A stretch of DNA of 64,000 bases, taken from NCBI GenBank assembly GCA_030430155.1, contig JAUIFV010000004.1:172-64171 (forward strand), read 5' to 3'. Below the pieces are notes generated by a model. That model did no database searches, was not told where the DNA came from, and saw nothing but the letters and a program-made list of their open reading frames with translations. The position numbers were made by a program, and so were the translations under genes. The stretch comes from Gammaproteobacteria bacterium. Lineage in GTDB: Bacteria; Pseudomonadota; Gammaproteobacteria; Xanthomonadales; SZUA-5. Below, piece after piece: positions 21,819 through 31,008 of this stretch; positions within the stretch are counted from its first letter, which is position 1, and every line of letters begins with the position of its first letter.

Positions 21819-22229
21819 ATGCAACGCACGCTCATATTGATGTTCGCGGCACTGGCGATCTCGTTCGGGCCCGCCGCTCTTGCAGAGCAAACGAGCGGAA
21901 GTTCCAAGCCCATCGCGCAGACCATGACCCCGGGTCCGCAGGCGGCAGCCGACGCCGAGCCGGCGGCAGACTCGGACGTGCGCCCCGGAGACTACCCCGG
22001 CGAGCGAGCAACTACGCGGACGTTGTCCACCGTTCTGGCCAAGGGCATTGATGGCCAGGGTCTGACCATGGAGGAGAAATGGTCCAACAACGTGATCGTT
22101 TGCAAGCGGATGAACGTGACCGGAACGCGGTTCGTACGCAAGGTTTGCCATACTCGCGGCGAGTGGCAGGCGATGCGATCGAACTCTCGTGAAGTGATGG
22201 ACTACGTCAAGATCGCTGGCGCTCCCTAA
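21819..22229 (+). CDS. Secreted hypothetical protein with C-x5-TGTR-x5-C motif
   Basis: Signal peptide MQRTLILMFAALAISFGPAALA; C-terminal VCKRMNVTGTRFVRKVC. Confidence 0.7.
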   Translation: MQRTLILMFAALAISFGPAALAEQTSGSSKPIAQTMTPGPQAAADAEPAADSDVRPGDYPGERATTRTLSTVLAKGIDGQGLTMEEKWSNNVIVCKRMNVTGTRFVRKVCHTRGEWQAMRSNSREVMDYVKIAGAP

Positions 22230-22351
22230 TACGACTGGCGTTCTCAATCATCTCCATTAACCAGAGCCTGCACCACAATCAGGCATTGCAATGACATGCT
22301 CCGCGCCGCTGGTACTTATCTTCTATCAATGGCCAGCGTCGCGGAGTTCTT

Positions 22352-22774
22352 TCAGCGCAGCAGATCGCCGAGGCAATCCTCCAGCTGTGCCAATCGACCG
22401 CCATCCAGCGCTGCAAACAGCTCCCCAGCGGCGGCATCAAAGGAGACCTTTGCCTCTGCATGGGTGCGCTTTCCTGCCTTTGACAGGGCAACCAAACTGA
22501 CTCGGGCATCGCGGGGATTGGATTCCTTCTCCACCATACCGATCTTGGCCAAAGGGTTGAGCAGCCGGGTGATTCCGGATGGAGTCAATCCCACCCTTTC
22601 GGCCAGATCGCTTCGTGACAGCCGCTGTCGCGGCGCCAGCGACAGTTGATTGAGGACCAAATAGTCAGATAGCCCCAGTCCGTGAAACGAGAGCGGGCCC
22701 CCGAGGCGCTTTTGTATCCGGCTGTGCAGATTGGCAATTTCGATCACCAGCTGGCCGGCGGTTTCGGCACTCAT
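22352..22774 (-). CDS. MarR family transcriptional regulator
   Basis: DLAERVGLTPSGITRLL, DARVSLVALSKAG. Confidence 0.88.
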   Translation of the reverse strand: MSAETAGQLVIEIANLHSRIQKRLGGPLSFHGLGLSDYLVLNQLSLAPRQRLSRSDLAERVGLTPSGITRLLNPLAKIGMVEKESNPRDARVSLVALSKAGKRTHAEAKVSFDAAAGELFAALDGGRLAQLEDCLGDLLR

Positions 22775-22868
22775 TGAACATTCCTTGATCTATACTTGAT
22801 GGAGCAACTATTCACCAATTTAGTTGCATAGTCAAGGTTTACTCAAGAAAATGATCTGCGTGACCTGC

Positions 22869-23357
22869 CTAGGGCGGCCACTGCTCGCTGATGGTCAACG
22901 CCAAGGCCATCACGATGGCGTCCTCGCGACCCTGGCGAGCGGGGTAGTAGCCTGGACGGCGACCGACTTCGGAGAAGCCAAAGCTCAGATACAAATCCAT
23001 CGCTCGCGGGTTGCTGGGTCGAACTTCGAGAAAGATCCGTTCGGCATGGTGCCAGCGGGCCAGGTCGATCAAGCGGGCCAGCAATCGGCGCGCGTGACCC
23101 TGACCCTGATGCGCCGTGGCGATGCATAGATTGAGCAGATGGGCCTCGCCGCCGGCCGCCGAGAGCACGCCGTAGCCGAGCAGTTCGGCGTCGCGCTCCA
23201 GCAGCCACAGCTCGTAGCCGGCCGACAGGCAGTCGCGGAACATGCCCAGGGTCCAGGGGAACTCATAGGAGGACTGCTCGACAGCAATGACGGCCGACAG
23301 GTCGGCCTGTGAGGCGGCTCGCAAGCGAGCTAGCGGCGGCGCCGGTGCCACGCTCAT
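22869..23357 (-). CDS. rimI: Ribosomal protein S18 alanine N-acetyltransferase
   Basis: FPWT, EAHLLNLC, QGQG, FLEVRPSN, RPGYY, REDAIVM. Confidence 0.93.
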   Translation of the reverse strand: MSVAPAPPLARLRAASQADLSAVIAVEQSSYEFPWTLGMFRDCLSAGYELWLLERDAELLGYGVLSAAGGEAHLLNLCIATAHQGQGHARRLLARLIDLARWHHAERIFLEVRPSNPRAMDLYLSFGFSEVGRRPGYYPARQGREDAIVMALALTISEQWPP

Positions 23358-23394
23358 CGACGCACTCGGTTGCGCTGCGGGATTGCCCGCACGC

Positions 23395-23748
23395 TCACTG
23401 ACGACTGCGCAGCGCGGCCTTCGCAGCGCGATACAGCGCGCGCTTTTGGTCCACTTCGGGTAGCAGCGTAGACAGCGACAGCCGCGGTTGGTTGCCCAAC
23501 TGCAGTTCCACCCCGTTTTCAGTCGTACGCAGGTCGATATCGATGCCGGCCGCGAAGGCGCGCAACTGCCCGAACCACCGGGTCCGGCCCACATCGATCG
23601 CATCGATAGCGACGGCCTCCGCCACGATGGGATGCTCAGCCTCAGTCTCTTCGACAGGCCCGACGCCCCGCAGGCGGTAAAGCGGCAGCTTCATCTCCGT
23701 CAGCACCGCGCGCTGCGATCCGCTCCAGTTGGCACCGAGGTCGGACAA
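23395..23748 (-). CDS. Hypothetical protein, possible divergent DNA Pol III psi (HolD-like)
   Basis: Immediately upstream of rimI; QRAVLTEMKL.LY.LR N-terminus and KRALY C-terminus. Confidence 0.5.
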   Translation of the reverse strand: MSDLGANWSGSQRAVLTEMKLPLYRLRGVGPVEETEAEHPIVAEAVAIDAIDVGRTRWFGQLRAFAAGIDIDLRTTENGVELQLGNQPRLSLSTLLPEVDQKRALYRAAKAALRSRQ

Positions 23749-23751
23749 CGT

Positions 23752-24408
23752 CTACTCCGCCTTCTGTGCTTCCGCCACCGCGGCGACCAGATCATCGACG
23801 AAGCTGAGCAGGATCTCGTCCACCGCCACGCTGAGCTCAGCCGTGCCGTCGGTCAGGCTCTCGCCTTGAGCCGGGCGCCGCAGGGTGTATTGCTTTTCCA
23901 TCAGCGGCAGACGTGAGCCGTCGAAATCGGCGCGGATGCGCATCCCGGCGACCACTTCGCGGTTGCTGCCATCGACCCGGATCACTTCGAAGCGATTGAG
24001 CCGGATACTGACCCGGTAGGCCTCGATACGCGGATCCAGTCGATTGGTGACCAGCGGGGCCAGGTTGCGCGCGTCGAACAGCTGCAGCGCGCGGCGCTGG
24101 ATCAGCGAGGGCGGCGGATCGTTCCACACCTGGTAGTGATATTGGGAGATGCGCAGACTGTCCGGATCGGTGGCGTAGAGTATTGGCCGTTCGCCGTGGA
24201 CGCCGTCGGCCTGCACGCCGTTGACCACCAGTGGCGCCTGCAGTGGCGCCTGCTCAAAGGCCGTGGCCGTGGTCGCGGGCGACAGCCGGTAGTAGCGGAA
24301 ATCCGGCAGCGGCGCGGGTCCGCTGCAGGCCACGATGAGCCCGGCCAGCAGGCCTCCGACGAGCAGTCTGGGTCGCAGCCAGCGCTGCAGGGGTAGGCGT
24401 CCTTTCAT
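23752..24408 (-). CDS. ABC-type transport auxiliary lipoprotein (PqiC-like)
   Basis: Lipobox IVAC, YYRL, W.DPP motif; follows the MCE gene. Confidence 0.82.
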   Translation of the reverse strand: MKGRLPLQRWLRPRLLVGGLLAGLIVACSGPAPLPDFRYYRLSPATTATAFEQAPLQAPLVVNGVQADGVHGERPILYATDPDSLRISQYHYQVWNDPPPSLIQRRALQLFDARNLAPLVTNRLDPRIEAYRVSIRLNRFEVIRVDGSNREVVAGMRIRADFDGSRLPLMEKQYTLRRPAQGESLTDGTAELSVAVDEILLSFVDDLVAAVAEAQKAE

Positions 24409-24409
24409 A

Positions 24410-25348
24410 CTAATCCCTCACATCATCGGCCTGCGGCGAGAACAGCAGCCGGTTGGGCGACTTGCGGATCTCGCGACTGAACTCGTCGACATGGCGACTG
24501 GCCGACTCCAGGTTGTAGGTGATTGCGTCGATGCGCTGGGCCACCGAAGACAGGGTCACGCGCAGGTCGGCGATGGCCTGCTCCACGTCGGGCGCAGACT
24601 TATCCACGGTGCTGCCCAAATCATCGAGGATGCCGTCCAGCCGTTCGCGGGTGCCGGCGAGTTCGGCGGTGAGTTCGCGCAAATTGCCGGCGCTGGCCGC
24701 CGACTGTTCGAGGATGGTCTCCAGCCGGCCCTGATTGTCGGGCCCAAGGATCTGCTTGATCGATTCGGCGCCGTCGTTGAGCCTGCCGAGCAGCGCTTGC
24801 GCCTCGTCCAGCAGTTCCGGCGTGCTTTGCTCCAGCGCGCCGGAGAGGTTGTCCAAACGCTTGCCCAGCTTGTCGACCAGCGGGGTGAGCTTGTGGCGGG
24901 TCAGATCGGTGACCTCACCGGCCAACTCGCCGACGGCAGCGAAGATGTCGCCACCGTCCCGGCCTTCGATCTCGTCGCCAGGGTTGAGCATGCTGGTCGC
25001 TTCGCCCTCGCGGATGCCGATGTAGACGTCGGAAAGCAGCCCGCTGGAAAGCAGCGCGGCCACAGAGTCGGAGGGAATCTGCCAGTCCTTGGCTACCGAA
25101 AAGTCGACCTTGAAGCGGGTTCTGCCGTCGACCTGCTCAGGCTCCACCGACTCCACCTGGCCGACGCGGAAGCCCTGGTAATAGACCGCGCTGCCAAAGC
25201 CCAGTCCGGACACGTCGCTGTAGCGAACCACGTACTCGTCGGTGGGGCCGGAACGGCCAGTGATCACATACAGCGACCCCAGCAGCAGAAACAGTGCGAC
25301 CACAACCACCAGGCCGACCAGAAAATAATTGACGTTGTCGCGTTTCAA
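24410..25348 (-). CDS. MCE/MlaD family protein with long helical extension
   Basis: N-terminal TM, VSGL..GSAV.YQG.RVGQV, GLL.D.YI, ~170 aa heptad region ending P.RLLF. Confidence 0.88.
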   Translation of the reverse strand: MKRDNVNYFLVGLVVVVALFLLLGSLYVITGRSGPTDEYVVRYSDVSGLGFGSAVYYQGFRVGQVESVEPEQVDGRTRFKVDFSVAKDWQIPSDSVAALLSSGLLSDVYIGIREGEATSMLNPGDEIEGRDGGDIFAAVGELAGEVTDLTRHKLTPLVDKLGKRLDNLSGALEQSTPELLDEAQALLGRLNDGAESIKQILGPDNQGRLETILEQSAASAGNLRELTAELAGTRERLDGILDDLGSTVDKSAPDVEQAIADLRVTLSSVAQRIDAITYNLESASRHVDEFSREIRKSPNRLLFSPQADDVRD

Positions 25349-25412
25349 GGCGCTTCTTCCCGCTCCCCCGGGGAGCTACGTGTTAGCTAATGGTAACCGT
25401 TGACTAGCCCGA

Positions 25413-26222
25413 CTAATCTTCCCCGGCGCCGGTCAGTCGTCGTAAGTACTCGTCTACATCCACATCCTGATCGCGTGGCCGTCGATTGAGCAGATCCTGG
25501 ATCCGCTCGTTGTCGCTGGCCTTGACCTCGGCCACGCTGCCGGTCATCAGCACCTTGCCGTGGTCCAGCACGGTGATCTTGTCGGCAATCTTAAACGCGC
25601 TATCGAGCTCATGGGTGACGACCACGATGGTCATTCGCATCGCGTCGCGCAGCTTCAGGATCAGCTCATCGAGTTCGGCCGAGACCACCGGGTCCAAACC
25701 GGCCGACGGCTCATCGAAGAACAGCAGCTTGGGATCCATGACAATGGCGCGGGCCAGCGCAGCGCGCTTGATCATGCCGCCGGAAAGCTGGCTGGGCATC
25801 AAATCCTGGAAGCCGCCCAGATTGACCACCTCCAGCTTCAGCCTGGTCATGATACGGATGGTGTTCTCGTCCAGCTGGAAGTGCTCACGCAGCGGCAGCG
25901 CGACGTTCTCGCCGACGCTCATCGAGGTGAACAGCGCACCGCCCTGGAAGGACACGCCGATCTCGCGTCTAAAGGCCATGCCCTCGCGCGGATCCATTTT
26001 GGCGATATCCCGGCCGAGCAGCTTGATGTGCCCTGAGCGCGGCTGATGCAGGCCCAGCAGATGACGCATCAGAGTGCTCTTGCCAGAGCCGGAGCCGCCC
26101 ATGATGACCCGGATTTCGCCCTGGTTGACCACGAAATCGACGTCATCGAGGATCTTCCGGGGACCGTAGTAGGTCACCAGATTGCGCACGTCAATTACCG
26201 GTTCTGGCTGGGCTTGGCTCAT
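25413..26222 (-). CDS. MlaF/Mkl-like ABC ATPase
   Basis: GGSGSGKS, FQGGALF, LSGGMIKRAALARA, DEPSAGLDP, VTHE. Confidence 0.9.
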   Translation of the reverse strand: MSQAQPEPVIDVRNLVTYYGPRKILDDVDFVVNQGEIRVIMGGSGSGKSTLMRHLLGLHQPRSGHIKLLGRDIAKMDPREGMAFRREIGVSFQGGALFTSMSVGENVALPLREHFQLDENTIRIMTRLKLEVVNLGGFQDLMPSQLSGGMIKRAALARAIVMDPKLLFFDEPSAGLDPVVSAELDELILKLRDAMRMTIVVVTHELDSAFKIADKITVLDHGKVLMTGSVAEVKASDNERIQDLLNRRPRDQDVDVDEYLRRLTGAGED

Positions 26223-26250
26223 CGCTCCTGCGTCGTACTCTCGTTCTTGT

Positions 26251-27054
26251 TTATCGATTGAGGAAGAAGCTGAAGACCATGTCGGCGACCAGGATCGCAC
26301 AGATCGACATCACCACCGCACGGGTGGTGGCCTTGCCCACGCCCTCGGCACCGCCGGTCACCGCAAAGCCGGTGCCCACGCCGATCAGCACGATCAGAAT
26401 GCCGAACACCAATCCCTTGATCAGTCCCTGCATCACATCCCAGGGCTCCAGCGCTTCCAGCGACTGGTGGAAATAGCTGTACAGGCTGATGTCCAGCGGA
26501 CCGGCGCTGAACAAGCCACCGCCCAAGATGGCGAAGAAGTCGGAAATGATGGTCAGGCAGGGCAGCATGACGATTGCCGCAATCAGCGGCGGCGCGGCCA
26601 GATAGCGGGCCGGTTCCACGCCGATGACCCGCAGCGCATCCACTTCCTGAGAGACCACCATCGAGCCCAGCCGTGCGGCCAGCGCCGAGGCGGTGCGCCC
26701 GGCCACTACGATGCCGGTGATCAGCGGACCGAACTCGCGAGTCACCCCCAGGGCGACTCCGATGACGATGGCGCTCTCGGCCCCGAAGGCCTTGAGCTGG
26801 GCGATGCCGTTGATGGCCAGGGAGAGGCCGATAACCATCGACAGCAGGGCGACGATGGGAATGGCGTCGGCGCCGATCTGGCGCATCTGGTGCAGCACAT
26901 GGTGCCAGCGCACCGGCTGGCCGCGGCGCGGTCCGAAGACCAGAAAGAACAGGCTCTCGCCCAGCAGCGAGCCGATGTAGCCCAGCTCCTCGATACGCTC
27001 CAGGCTGCTGCGGCCGAGCTGGGAAACCGCGCGGTGCACGGAATTGATGCTCAT
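26251..27054 (-). CDS. MlaE family ABC permease
   Basis: REFGPLITGIVVAGRTASA, EVDAL..IG..P, GAEGVGKATTRAVV. Confidence 0.92.
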   Translation of the reverse strand: MSINSVHRAVSQLGRSSLERIEELGYIGSLLGESLFFLVFGPRRGQPVRWHHVLHQMRQIGADAIPIVALLSMVIGLSLAINGIAQLKAFGAESAIVIGVALGVTREFGPLITGIVVAGRTASALAARLGSMVVSQEVDALRVIGVEPARYLAAPPLIAAIVMLPCLTIISDFFAILGGGLFSAGPLDISLYSYFHQSLEALEPWDVMQGLIKGLVFGILIVLIGVGTGFAVTGGAEGVGKATTRAVVMSICAILVADMVFSFFLNR

Positions 27055-27085
27055 CCGCTAGACCCTCGCCCGCCGCGCAGCTGCA

Positions 27086-27424
27086 TCAGCTCTGCGCCGC
27101 CTGCTCGAGGGAGGGGAAGATCGGAAAGACGCGATCCAAACGAGCCAGCTCCAACACCGCGATGACTGGCTGACTGACTGCCACCAGGCTGAAGTGCTGA
27201 CCCTTGCCGCGGGCGCTCTGGAAGCCTTCCACCAGCGCCGCGATGCCGGAGGAATCGATGTAGCTGACCTTGGACAGATCCACCGCCACCGGTTGACTCT
27301 TGCCCAGCGCGTCCAATATGGCCTTGCGCAGCTTCTGCGACCAGGACAGGTCGACCTCTCCTTGCACCATCACCACCTGGAACCCACTCTCCTCGGTGGT
27401 AGTACAACCGTTTTCTTGCGCCAT
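27086..27424 (-). CDS. STAS domain protein (anti-sigma antagonist type)
   Basis: GEVDL, VDLSKVSYIDSSGIAALV with the SpoIIAA/RsbV phospho-Ser motif, LDRVFPIF. Confidence 0.9.
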   Translation of the reverse strand: MAQENGCTTTEESGFQVVMVQGEVDLSWSQKLRKAILDALGKSQPVAVDLSKVSYIDSSGIAALVEGFQSARGKGQHFSLVAVSQPVIAVLELARLDRVFPIFPSLEQAAQS

Positions 27425-27480
27425 TCCCCATCTCCTAGCACCGTCGCACTGCCGCGGCGGCCCATTGCGAACCCTACATT

Positions 27481-29175
27481 CTACGCCGCTACCGACGCCA
27501 CCTTGGCGGCGCTGTTGAACTGCAGTCGCTTGACCATGCGCAGCACATTGCCCTGGCCCTGCTCTGGTTTTTCAAAGCCCCATTCATCCATCACCATGTC
27601 AATCAGATTGACCCCCAGGCCCCCTGGGCGGCACTGGTTCAAATCGCGCGGCTTGATCGCCTCGGCATCGACCGCCTTGGCCCAATCGCGCAGCACGAAC
27701 TCCACTGCGTCGCCGCGGCGCCAGATGTCCAGACTCATGCGTCCGCCCGGATCGCCCTGATAGGCATGCCGGATCACGTTGGCGGTGGCCTCGTCGATAG
27801 CCAGTACCACCCGCTGGCGAACTTCGGTGGGCACCGTCAGCGCGGTGAGCTGGCGGTCCACGGTTTTGCGCACCAGGCGCAGGCATTCGGCGTCGCAGCA
27901 GATACTGATGCCGCCCAGATACTGTGCCTCCTCGCCATTCTCCTCCACCAGCATCAGCGTGGTGTCGTCGGCCAGCTGCATCCGCCGCAGCTGCGAGACC
28001 AGACCGCGCAGCCGAGCTCTGGGGCTCAGCTCCACCACCGCATCGATCAGTTCCTGGAAGCCCTCGATGCCGATGGTCTCGCTTTCTCCGGCGCGCACGT
28101 CGGTTGCGCCGTCGCTGAAGATGTAGGCACTGCCATCGCCCAGGAAGGCGCGATTGCTGGGGTAGTCGATGCCCGGCAGGATGCCCAGCGGCGGGCCGTC
28201 GGCAATGATCTGCTGAAAGCTGCCGTCCGGCTTGCGCAGCAGCAGCGGCGGCAGGCCGCCATTGGACCATTCCAGTACGCCGCTGATCGGATCGTAGTAG
28301 CCGGCCAGCACGCAAACGAAGCGGCCGCCGGTGACCGTCGTGCAGATCTCGTCATTGACCCGCTTCAGCCACAGATCCGGCGGCGTGCCTTCCTTGCCGG
28401 CCCAGCGCAACAGCGAGGAGGCGCGCACCATCAGCAGCGCTGCGTCCATGCCCTTGCCGGAGACGTCGCCGACGCAAAAGGCGACTCGTCCGTCGGGCAG
28501 GGTGAAGTGATCGTAGAAGTCGCCGGAAATCTCCCGCGCGGGCAGATTGATACCCACCACCGGGCAGTCCTTCTCGCGCTTGGGCAGCAGGTCCTTTTGC
28601 ATCTGTCTGGCGAGTTGGAACTCGCGGCGGATGCGCTCCTGCTCCATCAAATCCTCGGCCAGCCGGGCATTGGATAGGGCCAGCGTGGTAGGCACGGCAA
28701 GCAGGCGCAGGATGTCGCGGTCGTGATCGTTGAACAACTCGCCGCCGCGCTTGTTGAGCACCTGCAGAGCGCCGATCGCGCCTTCACCGCTGGTCAGCGG
28801 TGCGCACAATATCGAGCGGGTGACGAAGCCGCCGACGTCGCCGGCGTGGTCGGCATCGGTCTCCACGTTCTGCACCAGCTGCACCTTGTTCTGCTTGATC
28901 GCGCGGCCGACGATGCCGCGCCCTTTGGGCACGCGCAGGCCGGTGACATCGACCGGGCCGAAGCAGGCGCGACAGACCAACTCGCCCTTGGAGCCGTCGA
29001 TCAAGAACAGCGCCGCCGCTTCGGCGTTCATGTGCGCGGCGATCTGCTCCACGGCCTGGCGCACGGTCTGATTGACATCCAGCGTGGTGGCGAAGGCCTG
29101 GGAAAAGTCGGCCAGCACCGCGACTTCATCAGAGCCAATGCCCTGTGCCACGGCGGCGACTTTGGCCGTACTCAC
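27481..29175 (-). CDS. GAF - SpoIIE/PP2C phosphatase - RsbW-like kinase fusion
   Basis: GAF (GIVG, SILCAPL, LNKRGGELF..D); PP2C (SGDFYD, GDVSGKG, FSDG, DDTT); HATPase (DEATANVIRHAY, PGGLG); GTGA overlap with pssA. Confidence 0.88.
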   Translation of the reverse strand: MSTAKVAAVAQGIGSDEVAVLADFSQAFATTLDVNQTVRQAVEQIAAHMNAEAAALFLIDGSKGELVCRACFGPVDVTGLRVPKGRGIVGRAIKQNKVQLVQNVETDADHAGDVGGFVTRSILCAPLTSGEGAIGALQVLNKRGGELFNDHDRDILRLLAVPTTLALSNARLAEDLMEQERIRREFQLARQMQKDLLPKREKDCPVVGINLPAREISGDFYDHFTLPDGRVAFCVGDVSGKGMDAALLMVRASSLLRWAGKEGTPPDLWLKRVNDEICTTVTGGRFVCVLAGYYDPISGVLEWSNGGLPPLLLRKPDGSFQQIIADGPPLGILPGIDYPSNRAFLGDGSAYIFSDGATDVRAGESETIGIEGFQELIDAVVELSPRARLRGLVSQLRRMQLADDTTLMLVEENGEEAQYLGGISICCDAECLRLVRKTVDRQLTALTVPTEVRQRVVLAIDEATANVIRHAYQGDPGGRMSLDIWRRGDAVEFVLRDWAKAVDAEAIKPRDLNQCRPGGLGVNLIDMVMDEWGFEKPEQGQGNVLRMVKRLQFNSAAKVASVAA

Positions 29176-30008
29176 TGCGAGTCCTCGGCCGCTGAGCGCG
29201 GCGTCTCCTCGCCGCTGTCAGCGTCCCTGTTGGCAGCGCTGTGCTCCCAAACCTGCCGTCGCTGGCGACGGCGCAGGCGCCGCCACAGCCACCAGACCGG
29301 TCCGGAAGCGGCGTAGATCAAGGACAGCGTGAGCAGCACATTGGGCGGATGCGCGGCGAGCAGTGCCAGAGCCACCACCGCCACCAGGATCCACAAAAAG
29401 CGCACCCGCTCCGGCCACACCTTGAAGCTGTAGTAGGGCAGTCGAGTGACCATGGCCAGCGCCAGCCCGGTGGTCAGCAGCGGCGTCAGCCAGACCAGCG
29501 CGCGGCGATCTCCGCCGAAATCCTCCACCGCCCAGACCAGCGCCATCAGCGTGCCGGCTGCGGCCGGACTGGCCAGTCCCTGGAAGAAATGCTTATCCAC
29601 CTTGCCCGCATTGGTGTTGAAGCGGGCCAGGCGCAGCGCCGCGCAGGCAGCGTAGACGAACGCCACCAGCCAGCCCACCTTGCCCCAGAAATCGCCGTAG
29701 GCCTTCAGTCCCGACAGCGACCAGCTGTAGATCACCAGGGCCGGCGCCAGACCGAAGCTGACCAGATCGGAAAGGCTGTCATATTGAATGCCGAACTCGC
29801 TCTGGGTGTTGGTCAGACGAGCGATGCGGCCATCCAGGCCGTCGAGCAGCCCGGCGATAAAAACCGCTACCGCGGCGGTAACGAAATGGCCGTTGAAACC
29901 GGCGATGATGGCGTAGAAGCCGGCAAACATGGCGCCGGTGGTAAACAGATTGGGGAGCAAATAGATTGCTCCGGAGCGGCGCATCCGTTGTTCCACTGAA
30001 TCACCCAT
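29172..30008 (-). CDS. pssA: CDP-diacylglycerol-serine O-phosphatidyltransferase
   Basis: YLLPNLFT, DGLDGRIAR...FG.QYDSLSD, ALRLARFN, FQGL. Confidence 0.93.
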   Translation of the reverse strand: MGDSVEQRMRRSGAIYLLPNLFTTGAMFAGFYAIIAGFNGHFVTAAVAVFIAGLLDGLDGRIARLTNTQSEFGIQYDSLSDLVSFGLAPALVIYSWSLSGLKAYGDFWGKVGWLVAFVYAACAALRLARFNTNAGKVDKHFFQGLASPAAAGTLMALVWAVEDFGGDRRALVWLTPLLTTGLALAMVTRLPYYSFKVWPERVRFLWILVAVVALALLAAHPPNVLLTLSLIYAASGPVWWLWRRLRRRQRRQVWEHSAANRDADSGEETPRSAAEDSQ

Positions 30009-30195
30009 CGCTGACCTGTGGCTGCCTGGATCGGAGCGGCATTGTAGCTTGGATGGACGCCAGCATCGTCGATGGGCGTGCTCTCCGAGCGCCCATGGGT
30101 TCCGCGCTCCCGGTCGCAATCGGAGCAACCCTGCCTTGCCGATGCATTCATTGGGGCGCATCCTTAGGGAAGTCTCGGTGTACAGGAGAGTTTCG

Positions 30196-30591
30196 ATGAC
30201 TATTCGTGTCCTTGCCATCGCGTTGGCGGTCTGCGCCGCCGGTCCACTTGCTGCCGAACAGATTTACAAGTGGAAGGACGCCTCCGGGGCGACCGTGTTC
30301 TCCAAGACCCCGCCACCTGAAGGCGAAGAATCCGAACAGCTGACCCTGCGCCAGCCGCCGCCAGTGCCGGCACCGCCGGAAGAAAATGCGGCCGGGCCCG
30401 CAGCCGAGCGCGCGGCCGCTTGCGAAGCGGCGCGGCAGAATCTGGACACGCTGCGCGACAACCCGGTGGTCGAAGTGCAGCAGGCCGACGGCAGTCGCCG
30501 TACCCTGGGCACTGACGAACGCGAAGTGATGCGTGCTGCCGAGGAAAAGCGGGTGGAGATGTTCTGCGGCGACGACGCGGCCGAGCCGTAG
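30196..30591 (+). CDS. DUF4124 domain secreted protein
   Basis: Signal peptide then IYKWKDASG.TVFS.TPP; C-terminal Cys pair. Confidence 0.8.
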   Translation: MTIRVLAIALAVCAAGPLAAEQIYKWKDASGATVFSKTPPPEGEESEQLTLRQPPPVPAPPEENAAGPAAERAAACEAARQNLDTLRDNPVVEVQQADGSRRTLGTDEREVMRAAEEKRVEMFCGDDAAEP

Positions 30592-30633
30592 GGTCTTTCA
30601 TTAGCGGAATTACTGAATACGCGCCTTGGACCG

Positions 30634-30978
30634 ATGCGTACTCTAGGCTGGTTGCTGGCAATACTGCTGATCGCTGCGCTTGGCTTGCTGGCGCTGCTGC
30701 GCTGGCAACCGCAGCTGGTCCCGGCCGCGATCAGCGCAAGCGTCCCCCAGGCCATAGTCGACGCTGTGCACGCTGAGCCGGGCGCAGCACAGCAGAACGG
30801 CGAATCACCGGGTGAGCCCGCCGATCCAGCTCAGGGACCGAAGATCTACGCCTGGAAAGATGACCAGGGGCGCTGGAACTACACCGACACCCCGCCCACC
30901 GATCGCCCCTATGAGACCCGCCAATACCGCGAAGACGTCAACGTGGTCCCTGCCTACTCGCCAGATCCGGACGGCTGA
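30634..30978 (+). CDS. DUF4124 domain membrane-anchored protein
   Basis: N-terminal TM; IYAWKDDQGRWNYTDTPP. Confidence 0.8.
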   Translation: MRTLGWLLAILLIAALGLLALLRWQPQLVPAAISASVPQAIVDAVHAEPGAAQQNGESPGEPADPAQGPKIYAWKDDQGRWNYTDTPPTDRPYETRQYREDVNVVPAYSPDPDG

Positions 30979-31008
30979 GTAACTCCACAGACCGTCAGCC
31001 CCAATCCT

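Follow-up and report, generated by a model that had tools for sequence, protein, structure and literature searches.

To our knowledge, the post-translational regulation of lipid traffic between the two membranes of bacteria is largely unknown, and we know of no kinase or phosphatase found for MlaB, the STAS protein of the E. coli transporter MlaFEDB. Partner-switching modules of the RsbU/RsbW/RsbV type normally control a sigma factor. Among proteins related to these modules, SypE unites kinase and phosphatase domains in one protein, and Rv1364c is linked to SigF control. Here we describe a locus in a 64,000-nucleotide stretch of a gammaproteobacterial genome (contig JAUIFV010000004.1; this whole stretch is called the window). 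On its minus strand, at positions 23752-30008, genes for a GAF-PP2C-kinase fusion and a free STAS protein stand in line with a pssA-like gene and the genes of an MCE-type lipid transporter. Our preferred reading, to which we give a probability of roughly 60%, is that the STAS protein serves an Mpc-type transporter in the cytoplasm, as a subunit or regulator equivalent to MlaB, and that its association with the ATPase MlaF is switched by reversible phosphorylation of Ser58.

The closest described transporters are MlaFEDB of E. coli and MpcEFDA of Brucella abortus. MlaFEDB (PDB 6XGY, 6XBD, and 6ZY2; Thong 2016, PMC5016091; Kolich 2020, PMC7367683) is described as having the same MlaE/MlaF core together with an MCE protein, and its operon likewise encodes a small cytoplasmic STAS protein. 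A conserved Ser/Thr is located at its ATPase interface, which is solved for MlaB Thr52 and modelled for Ser58 in our case. The STAS protein of the window differs from MlaB in being a full-length protein of the SpoIIAA/RsbV type, which falls below the MlaB cut-off and has kinase and phosphatase genes of its own. Moreover, the MCE protein is long, a PqiC-like lipoprotein terminates the operon, and neither MlaC nor MlaA is found in the genome. MpcEFDA is a Mla-Pqi chimeric system, in which the permease MpcE begins with a STAS domain that is homologous to MlaB (Lannoy 2025, PMC12436622). According to the accessible text of that paper, it shares with the window an MlaE-like permease, an MlaF-like ATPase, an MCE protein about twice as long as MlaD, a terminal PqiC-like lipoprotein, the lack of MlaC, and a STAS element associated with the permease. 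In Brucella, STAS domain and permease form one polypeptide, with the STAS domain N-terminal, and a paralogous operon of our source genome (contig C162) is built alike, whereas the window contains a separate antagonist-type gene together with the GAF-PP2C-kinase gene. Neither 'phosphorylat' nor 'kinase' is present in the accessible main text of the Brucella paper.

The regulatory part of the locus resembles the Bacillus modules SpoIIE/SpoIIAB/SpoIIAA and RsbU/RsbW/RsbV, whose PP2C phosphatase, GHKL serine kinase, and DSSG-bearing STAS protein belong to families homologous to those found here. It differs from them in that the operon has no sigma factor, the phosphatase and kinase are joined in one GAF-headed protein, and what is conserved next to the module is an ABC lipid transporter. 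Two described switches have outputs other than a sigma factor. The Vibrio fischeri SypE/SypA pair forms a sigma-independent STAS switch (PMC10120452), and the Anabaena phosphatase HenR controls a glycosyltransferase with a STAS protein (PMC13555669). As far as these accounts go, the phospho-STAS output acts on a non-sigma target in both, but the targets belong to polysaccharide or biofilm synthesis instead of an ABC/MCE transporter, and the input domains differ. M. tuberculosis Rv1364c (3KE6) likewise combines RsbU-like and RsbW-like domains in a single polypeptide; its STAS domain is fused, whereas the one in the window is free and stays with MlaE. The preliminary description of this DNA, which was based on the sequence alone, knew of no characterised example of such a combination. 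In agreement with this, the full-text literature, with subscription journals and supplementary files outside its coverage, yields no described Mla or MCE transporter with a partner-switching kinase/phosphatase, but only two E. coli papers posing the hypothesis and unrelated work. A review of STAS-only proteins has no mention of 'Mla', 'MCE', 'ABC transporter', or 'lipid'. The novelty of the locus is the combination of two known kinds, an Mpc/Mla-type transporter and a partner-switching module.

The switching module and the transporter

The unit is composed of seven tightly spaced genes in the order pssA-like gene, fusion, STAS, MlaE, MlaF, MCE, and PqiC-like lipoprotein (Table 1). All seven genes named in the preliminary description are present where it placed them, as judged from family-model matches and from the frames as read, and the YIDSSG motif that it attributed to the free STAS protein is read directly in frame 27086-27424. 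The start codon of the fusion (29175-29173) and the stop codon of pssA (29174-29172) form the GTGA overlap described before. The operon was also said to lack a sigma factor, and a Pfam scan finds no sigma-factor domain in the seven genes and three flanking open reading frames, sigma factors elsewhere in the genome not having been searched for.

The STAS protein exceeds the cut-off of the anti-sigma-factor antagonist model TIGR00377 (73.5 bits versus 53.45). A profile of its family, built from 73 sequences, scores TM1442 at 78 bits, SpoIIAA at 52, and RsbV at 50. Residues Y55, D57, S58, S59, and G60 are invariant in all 73 sequences. In alignments, Ser58, the first of the two Ser residues in DSSG, falls on the DS(S/A/T)G motif of TM1442, SpoIIAA, and RsbV; we take it to correspond to the residue phosphorylated in SpoIIAA and RsbV. 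By sequence coverage, the protein spans residues 6-109 of TM1442 and is full-length, unlike MlaB, which is a minimal STAS protein without the last strand and helix (Kolich 2020, PMC7367683).

The PP2C domain of the fusion retains the motifs GDF.D, DVSG.G, and SDG in an alignment to P. aeruginosa RssB, and D-D-T-T is also read; these four are presumably the acidic metal-binding motifs. The domain aligns to RssB (3ES2) with an E-value of 1.6e-12 and to Rv1364c (3KE6) with 1.1e-8. The kinase domain aligns to RsbW (6M36, E 8.5e-6) and SpoIIAB, and its N-box E-A-x-x-N-x-x-R-H-A-Y and GGLG box are conserved in 98 orthologues. Judged by sequence, a PP2C phosphatase, a GHKL kinase, and a DSSG-bearing STAS protein, the parts that define a partner-switching module, are all encoded in the operon, and the sigma-factor partner is not.

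On the transporter side, the permease exceeds the cut-off of TIGR00056 with 219.5 bits. The ATPase scores 202 bits against NF008809, below the equivalog cut-off of 441, and has a conserved C-terminal tail in which R247, Y259, R262, and L263 are invariant in 56 sequences. The MCE protein (E 2.7e-26 against TIGR00996) contains one MCE/MlaD domain followed by a long helical C-terminal extension, which gives only weak matches to helical-repeat families. The sequence LIVAC near the N-terminus of the lipoprotein is presumably lipobox-like. The source genome is 96.6% complete and contains two MCE systems, both ordered MlaE, MlaF, long MCE, and PqiC-like lipoprotein, with no match to MlaC (PF05494) or MlaA (PF04333). 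In its sequence features, with permease, ATPase, long MCE protein, terminal PqiC-like lipoprotein, and neither MlaC nor MlaA, the transporter of the window is of the Mpc type save for the fused STAS domain.

The second MCE system of the source genome provides a fused counterpart. Its MlaE is extended at the N-terminus by about 140 residues, and a 30-sequence alignment of this extension matches the free STAS family in hhalign with a probability of 92.5% (E 4.9e-7). The L-D-(T/S)-A-G of the paralogue aligns on I-D-S-S-G, its variable position being T in 18 of the 30 sequences and S in the other 12, and the best solved matches of the extension are MlaB chains, albeit weak ones (E 0.011-0.023). 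The relation is visible only with the 30-sequence alignment: a single paralogue sequence gives a probability of 0.2% against the STAS family, Pfam finds no family in the N-terminal 181 residues even at E <= 10, and a database search with this region returns four close matches, none with a STAS annotation. Since the profile of the extension matches the free STAS family, the STAS domain appears to be physically part of the paralogous permease. The order of STAS followed by MlaE is the same in both systems, as separate genes in the window and as a fusion in the paralogue. The paralogous system is present in 85 of 101 genomes sampled from the order of the source genome; the 10 sampled from family f10 all lack it.

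Within the order, the distributions of the STAS gene and of the canonical Mla pathway are largely complementary. A hand cross-tabulation over 200 genomes other than the source genome gives 78 with STAS and no MlaC, 93 with MlaC and no STAS, 16 with both, and 13 with neither. All 24 genomes of family f10 have STAS and none has MlaC; families f7 and f8 show the reverse.

Linkage and co-occurrence of the STAS gene

The order was surveyed in 201 genomes including the source genome (G000), of which 103 match the fusion at E <= 1e-30. The best locus was fetched from the 94 other genomes with a fusion match at E <= 3.6e-64, and eight weaker genomes (E 1e-31 to 1e-43; G019, G043, G083, G084, G103, G116, G131, and G177) were left out. 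The STAS gene is located directly downstream of the kinase in 63 of the 94 loci, and MlaE adjoins it in 62 of these, the remaining one being truncated by the contig end. The other 31 loci have no STAS gene beside the fusion; in four of them less than 600 nucleotides of contig are left. STAS is encoded apart from the kinase in 29 genomes (24 of family f10 and five of one f1 genus), and it lies directly upstream of MlaE in all 29. In f10, the STAS-MlaE pair is typically found about 55 kb from the kinase/phosphatase. Two of the weaker genomes, G084 (L304) and G116 (L305), show pssA, kinase, STAS, and MlaE in a row, with the GAF-PP2C part not in line and weaker GAF-PP2C paralogues elsewhere. These two, together with the 62 kinase-adjacent and 29 kinase-distant loci, constitute 93 informative loci, and STAS is directly upstream of MlaE in 93 of 93. 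The gene-neighbourhood survey suggested in the preliminary description finds the linkage conserved.

The pair remains together when the rest of the operon does not. Downstream of STAS, the 63 loci extend over the full operon in 29 cases, to MCE in three, to MlaF in 17, and to MlaE only in 13, and the truncated locus contains STAS only. At least 5.9 kb of downstream sequence is available in 13 of the 17 loci ending with MlaF, and at least 5.4 kb in 11 of the 13 ending with MlaE. Orthologues of MlaF-MCE-PqiC (82-83%, 61%, and 46-51% identity) are found elsewhere in the genome in both genomes examined, and those of MCE-PqiC in all three examined; STAS remains with MlaE in each of these five. STAS and MlaE are never separated in the loci of the order. 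With heuristic start choice, the median gap is -4 nucleotides from kinase to STAS and 11 nucleotides from STAS to MlaE.

The operon splits recur at constant seams, which separate pssA-kinase/phosphatase, STAS-MlaE, MlaF, and MCE-PqiC from each other (L024-L035, L087-L112, L114, and L132-L137).

The STAS gene occurs in one copy per carrier genome, in 95 of the 201 genomes (E <= 1e-15). Cross-tabulated by hand with the source genome excluded, the 200 other genomes comprise 92 with both fusion and STAS, two with the fusion only (G179 and G190, both at contig ends), two with STAS and no strong fusion match (G084 and G116), and 104 with neither. No statistic is given for this co-occurrence because related genomes are not independent. 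Fusion and STAS also vary together within families, being present in the same 7 of 24 genomes in f12, in 2 of 4 in f5, and in 1 of 25 in f2. Five f10 genomes (G117, G021, G140, G085, and G154) were inspected for further module parts. Each has one small free STAS reading frame (103-125 residues), which is linked to MlaE, and the remaining STAS matches are located in open frames of 509-600 residues. Each also has one full-length HATPase_c_2 match of 69-77 bits, all others reaching at most 36 bits, and one strong SpoIIE match of 119-133 bits, all others reaching at most 32 bits. The kinase/phosphatase in these five genomes is without another evident STAS substrate.

The linkage extends beyond the order. 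Seven of nine genome-contig loci found with the fusion contain STAS, MlaE, and MlaF. Kinase, STAS, and MlaE stand together in records titled Acidiferrobacteraceae, Rhodospirillaceae (two), and Phycisphaera; in the Phycisphaera record, PP2C is encoded on the strand opposite to kinase-STAS-MlaE-MlaF. In a phylum sample of 401 genomes, 33 match the fusion at E <= 1e-40. Outside the order, four genomes reach at least 40% identity with enough context to be judged (G212, G470, G334, and G512), and all four have kinase-STAS-MlaE; a fifth, G415, is truncated by the contig end. A further 23 loci of this sample, with GAF-PP2C at 30-39% identity, are not accompanied by kinase, STAS, or MlaE at distances up to 1.5 kb and were set aside as a different family. 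A metagenome sample was chosen from the STAS side, as the best 80 contigs of 567 relatives. MlaE is next to STAS in 58 of the 65 contigs with at least 500 nucleotides downstream, in one of them across a 470-nucleotide gap. The kinase domain is directly upstream of STAS in 53 of the 56 contigs with at least 600 nucleotides upstream under the rule of our script, and in a 54th (L201) the kinase overlaps STAS by 2 nucleotides. An arrangement found again in about 90 genomes of the order, and also in other classes and phyla, is far from anything that chance would produce.

These surveys leave little room for the view that the gene order is synteny inherited within one order and reflects no functional coupling, which we consider very improbable: most counted loci do come from related, non-independent genomes, but Alphaproteobacteria, Acidiferrobacteraceae, and a Phycisphaera metagenome-assembled genome show the same linkage in other gene orders and with the domains split otherwise, the linkage survives repeated operon rearrangements, and gains and losses co-vary within three families.

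A candidate phosphorylation switch at the STAS-MlaF interface

The complex of STAS and MlaF was modelled from a separate alignment for each protein, in three runs and with three controls. The predicted complex scores 0.77 in three runs, and the best of the controls scores 0.00; the score mark used is attained by 58 of 80 solved complexes and by 2 of 110 mismatched pairs. The runs share at least 97% of contacts, and the partner has a predicted local distance difference test value of 91. The modelled interface is formed by STAS residues 55, 57-59, 61-63, 65-66, and 89-95 and MlaF residues 115-132, 161-163, and 190-196. Ser58 is central in this interface, where it is predicted to contact MlaF residues 125, 128, 129, 161, and 163. 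The interface residues of STAS are 94% conserved compared with 67% for the whole protein, and those of MlaF 85% compared with 80%. The modelled position of Ser58 mirrors the data on E. coli MlaB, in which Thr52 lies at the centre of the contact with MlaF; the exchange T52E weakens binding, and T52A leaves no ATPase activity (PMC7367683, PMC5016091). Phosphorylation of MlaB is hypothesised in the same papers, with no kinase named in the text accessible to us. Structure prediction had been proposed as a check on the binding of STAS to MlaF. The score and the location of Ser58 in the interface support such binding in the model, with the reservation that solved MlaFB complexes may bias the score.

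Under the preferred reading, MlaE2F2, the MCE needle, and the PqiC-like cap would together form an envelope-spanning lipid transporter of the Mpc type. Unphosphorylated STAS would dock to the helical subdomain of MlaF through its Ser58 face, by which the ATPase would be stabilised or activated. The RsbW-type kinase domain would phosphorylate Ser58, so that the contact between STAS and MlaF would be broken and STAS released. The PP2C domain, controlled by the N-terminal GAF sensor, would strip the phosphate from Ser58. In such a scheme, the ABC ATPase would occupy the place of the sigma/anti-sigma factor of classical partner switching. The direction of the phosphorylation effect is taken from the behaviour of MlaB T52E and SpoIIAA, and we infer phosphorylation itself, the GAF input, and the lipid substrate. 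The suggestion of the preliminary description that STAS is an MlaB equivalent is supported by the conserved linkage, the co-occurrence, the complex model, and an operon without a sigma factor.

A wider form of this scheme is possible, although we put it forward only tentatively. Here the ABC ATPase would replace the sigma factor in a genuine partner switch, and the Ser58-centred face of STAS would bind either the kinase domain or MlaF. GAF would read a signal of lipid precursors or envelope state, and the lipid bridge would be opened or closed within seconds. Co-expression with phosphatidylserine synthase would match synthesis to export in the order, and the switchable Mpc-type system would stand in for the MlaA/MlaC pathway.

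The operon family offers candidate enzymes for the idea, proposed in 2016 and 2020, that the transporter is switched by STAS phosphorylation. As a sensor phosphatase, a kinase, a STAS protein with an invariant Ser, and a transporter are genetically tied, this hypothesis can be addressed directly, using point mutants and purified proteins. If it is true, partner switching would extend from the control of transcription to the direct control of a membrane machine, and lineages in which the MlaA/MlaC pathway is not found would possess a regulated route for envelope lipid transport.

Several observations weigh against the preferred reading. By its sequence, the STAS protein is an anti-sigma-factor antagonist of the SpoIIAA/RsbV type and not a member of the MlaB family: it scores 26.5 bits against the MlaB model NF033618 (cut-off 90), and its family profile scores solved MlaB chains at only 19.7 bits (E 0.006). 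The G1 box of the kinase reads R-D-x-A instead of the typical GHKL D-x-G-x-G in 98 of 98 orthologues, with the Asp retained. Families f4 and f9 have, in place of the fusion, one gene for GAF-PP2C and another for an RsbW-sized kinase, so that an anti-sigma role is conceivable. The source genome has other RsbW-like kinases (on C278 with 70.8 bits and on C280 with 45.6 bits) and five further STAS matches, so that cross-talk is possible. In the metagenome sample, PP2C, kinase, and STAS occur without MlaE downstream in 7 of the 65 contigs, so that STAS may have other or additional partners. A CHASE2 adenylate/guanylate cyclase replaces MlaE in three of the seven (L201:2604-4847, L202:1668-3911, and L209:2650-4902; STAS 55-58% identical) and possibly represents another output of this switch. 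In two (L188:7732-9296 and L197:1069-2672), genes for an FHA-domain protein and a eukaryote-type PP2C follow kinase-STAS on the opposite strand; of the others, one has a thymidine kinase gene and one is L195. Finally, the complex model may have passed because of its likeness to MlaFB, for which complexes are already solved.

Much of this would fit a classical partner switch with its output elsewhere: the RsbW-type domain would hold a sigma factor, or STAS would act on a different target, for instance a cyclase, and the mla-type genes would be only co-transcribed neighbours or members of the regulon. The match of STAS to TIGR00377, its closest solved relatives, the free kinase gene in f4 and f9, and the contigs without MlaE all favour such an output. 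It is nevertheless unlikely in our view. Where STAS is separated, it stays with MlaE and not with the kinase in 29 of 29 genomes; the operon has no sigma factor, the kinase is tethered to the phosphatase in the fused form, a related STAS domain is fused to the paralogous MlaE, and the STAS:MlaF model passes its controls.

The pssA-like gene raises another alternative. Its protein scores 103.2 bits against TIGR00473, just below the cut-off of 107, with archaetidylserine synthases as the next best matches, and is a probable phosphatidylserine synthase by sequence; tblastn finds a single copy of the gene in the source genome. In 92 of the 94 order loci, it is the gene immediately preceding the kinase/phosphatase, the contigs of the other two beginning less than 300 nucleotides from the fusion, and this adjacency is kept even where STAS and the mla genes are about 55 kb away. 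The median gap of -4 nucleotides between pssA and the fusion, again with heuristic start choice, suggests translational coupling. The adjacency and the gap would suit a constitutive, structural STAS subunit of the MlaB kind, in which case the GAF-PP2C-kinase would mainly serve another process, for example the control of PssA or phospholipid synthesis, and any phosphorylation of STAS would leave transport unaffected. We regard this arrangement as improbable. Outside the order, pssA is linked in none of nine loci (L004-L007 and L252-L256), although kinase, STAS, and MlaE are linked there. Moreover, kinase/phosphatase and STAS track each other in presence and absence (92 both, 104 neither), no variation is seen at Ser58 or around it in any of the 73 sequences, and the five f10 genomes have no other evident STAS substrate. 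The coupling to phosphatidylserine synthesis proposed in the preliminary description is thus borne out as linkage inside the order and not outside it, and we read the pssA linkage as lineage-specific co-expression that is not part of the core mechanism. Because the linkage vanishes outside the order, pssA is ranked low as the primary functional partner of the kinase/phosphatase.

Further parts of partner switches are scattered over the source genome. An RsbW-like reading frame lies beside a STAS gene on contig C280 (5320-6066), another RsbW-like frame is located on C278, and PP2C-STAS pairs are present on C78 and C241.

Gene calls and surroundings of the locus

Table 1 Features of the operon and of the paralogous system; coordinates are positions in the window unless a contig is named.
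Feature	Coordinates	Strand	Evidence
pssA-like CDP-alcohol phosphatidyltransferase, first gene of the unit	29172-30008	-	PF01066, E 1e-19
GAF-SpoIIE(PP2C)-HATPase_c_2 sensor fusion, 564 residues, GTG start	27481-29175	-	PF13185, 4.1e-16; PF07228, 6.2e-39; PF13581, 1e-22
GAF domain of the fusion	about 28675-29082	-	PF13185, E 4.1e-16
SpoIIE/PP2C phosphatase domain of the fusion	about 27943-28497	-	PF07228, E 6.2e-39
RsbW/SpoIIAB-type serine kinase domain of the fusion	about 27529-27891	-	PF13581, E 1e-22, positions 5-127/127
Single-domain STAS protein, 112 residues	27086-27424	-	PF01740, 1.8e-19, positions 5-106/106
Predicted phospho-acceptor Ser58 codon	27251-27253	-	Y-I-D-S-S-G motif
MlaE-type ABC permease, 267 residues, no fused STAS	26251-27054	-	PF02405, 1.4e-69, residues 54-263
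MlaF-type ABC ATPase, 269 residues, ATG at 26222	25413-26222	-	PF00005; best NCBIfam match MlaF NF008809
Long MCE protein, 312 residues, N-terminal membrane anchor, MpcD-like	24410-25348	-	PF02470, 2e-14, residues 36-115
PqiC/MpcA-like outer-membrane lipoprotein (ABC_trans_aux), last gene	23752-24408	-	PF03886, 1.3e-9
Paralogous Mpc-type operon: MlaE with STAS-like extension, MlaF, 321-residue MCE, ABC_trans_aux lipoprotein	contig C162, L016:1017-4617		

Two calls were rejected. A Gly/Arg-rich frame of 126 residues on the minus strand (27051-27431) overlaps the STAS gene in a different frame, has no Pfam match, and is spurious, an artefact of the high G+C content. A start of MlaF at the GTG at 26300 would make the protein too long; its orthologues begin at the Met of the ATG listed in Table 1.

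A scan of positions 22500-31000 gives one promoter-like site (1.2 expected) and nine terminator-like sites (4.8 +/- 2.9 expected), with none of either kind at an informative intergenic position. Just downstream of a GNAT gene, the G+C content falls to 0.567 at positions 22000-22999, compared with 0.61-0.68 in the surroundings.

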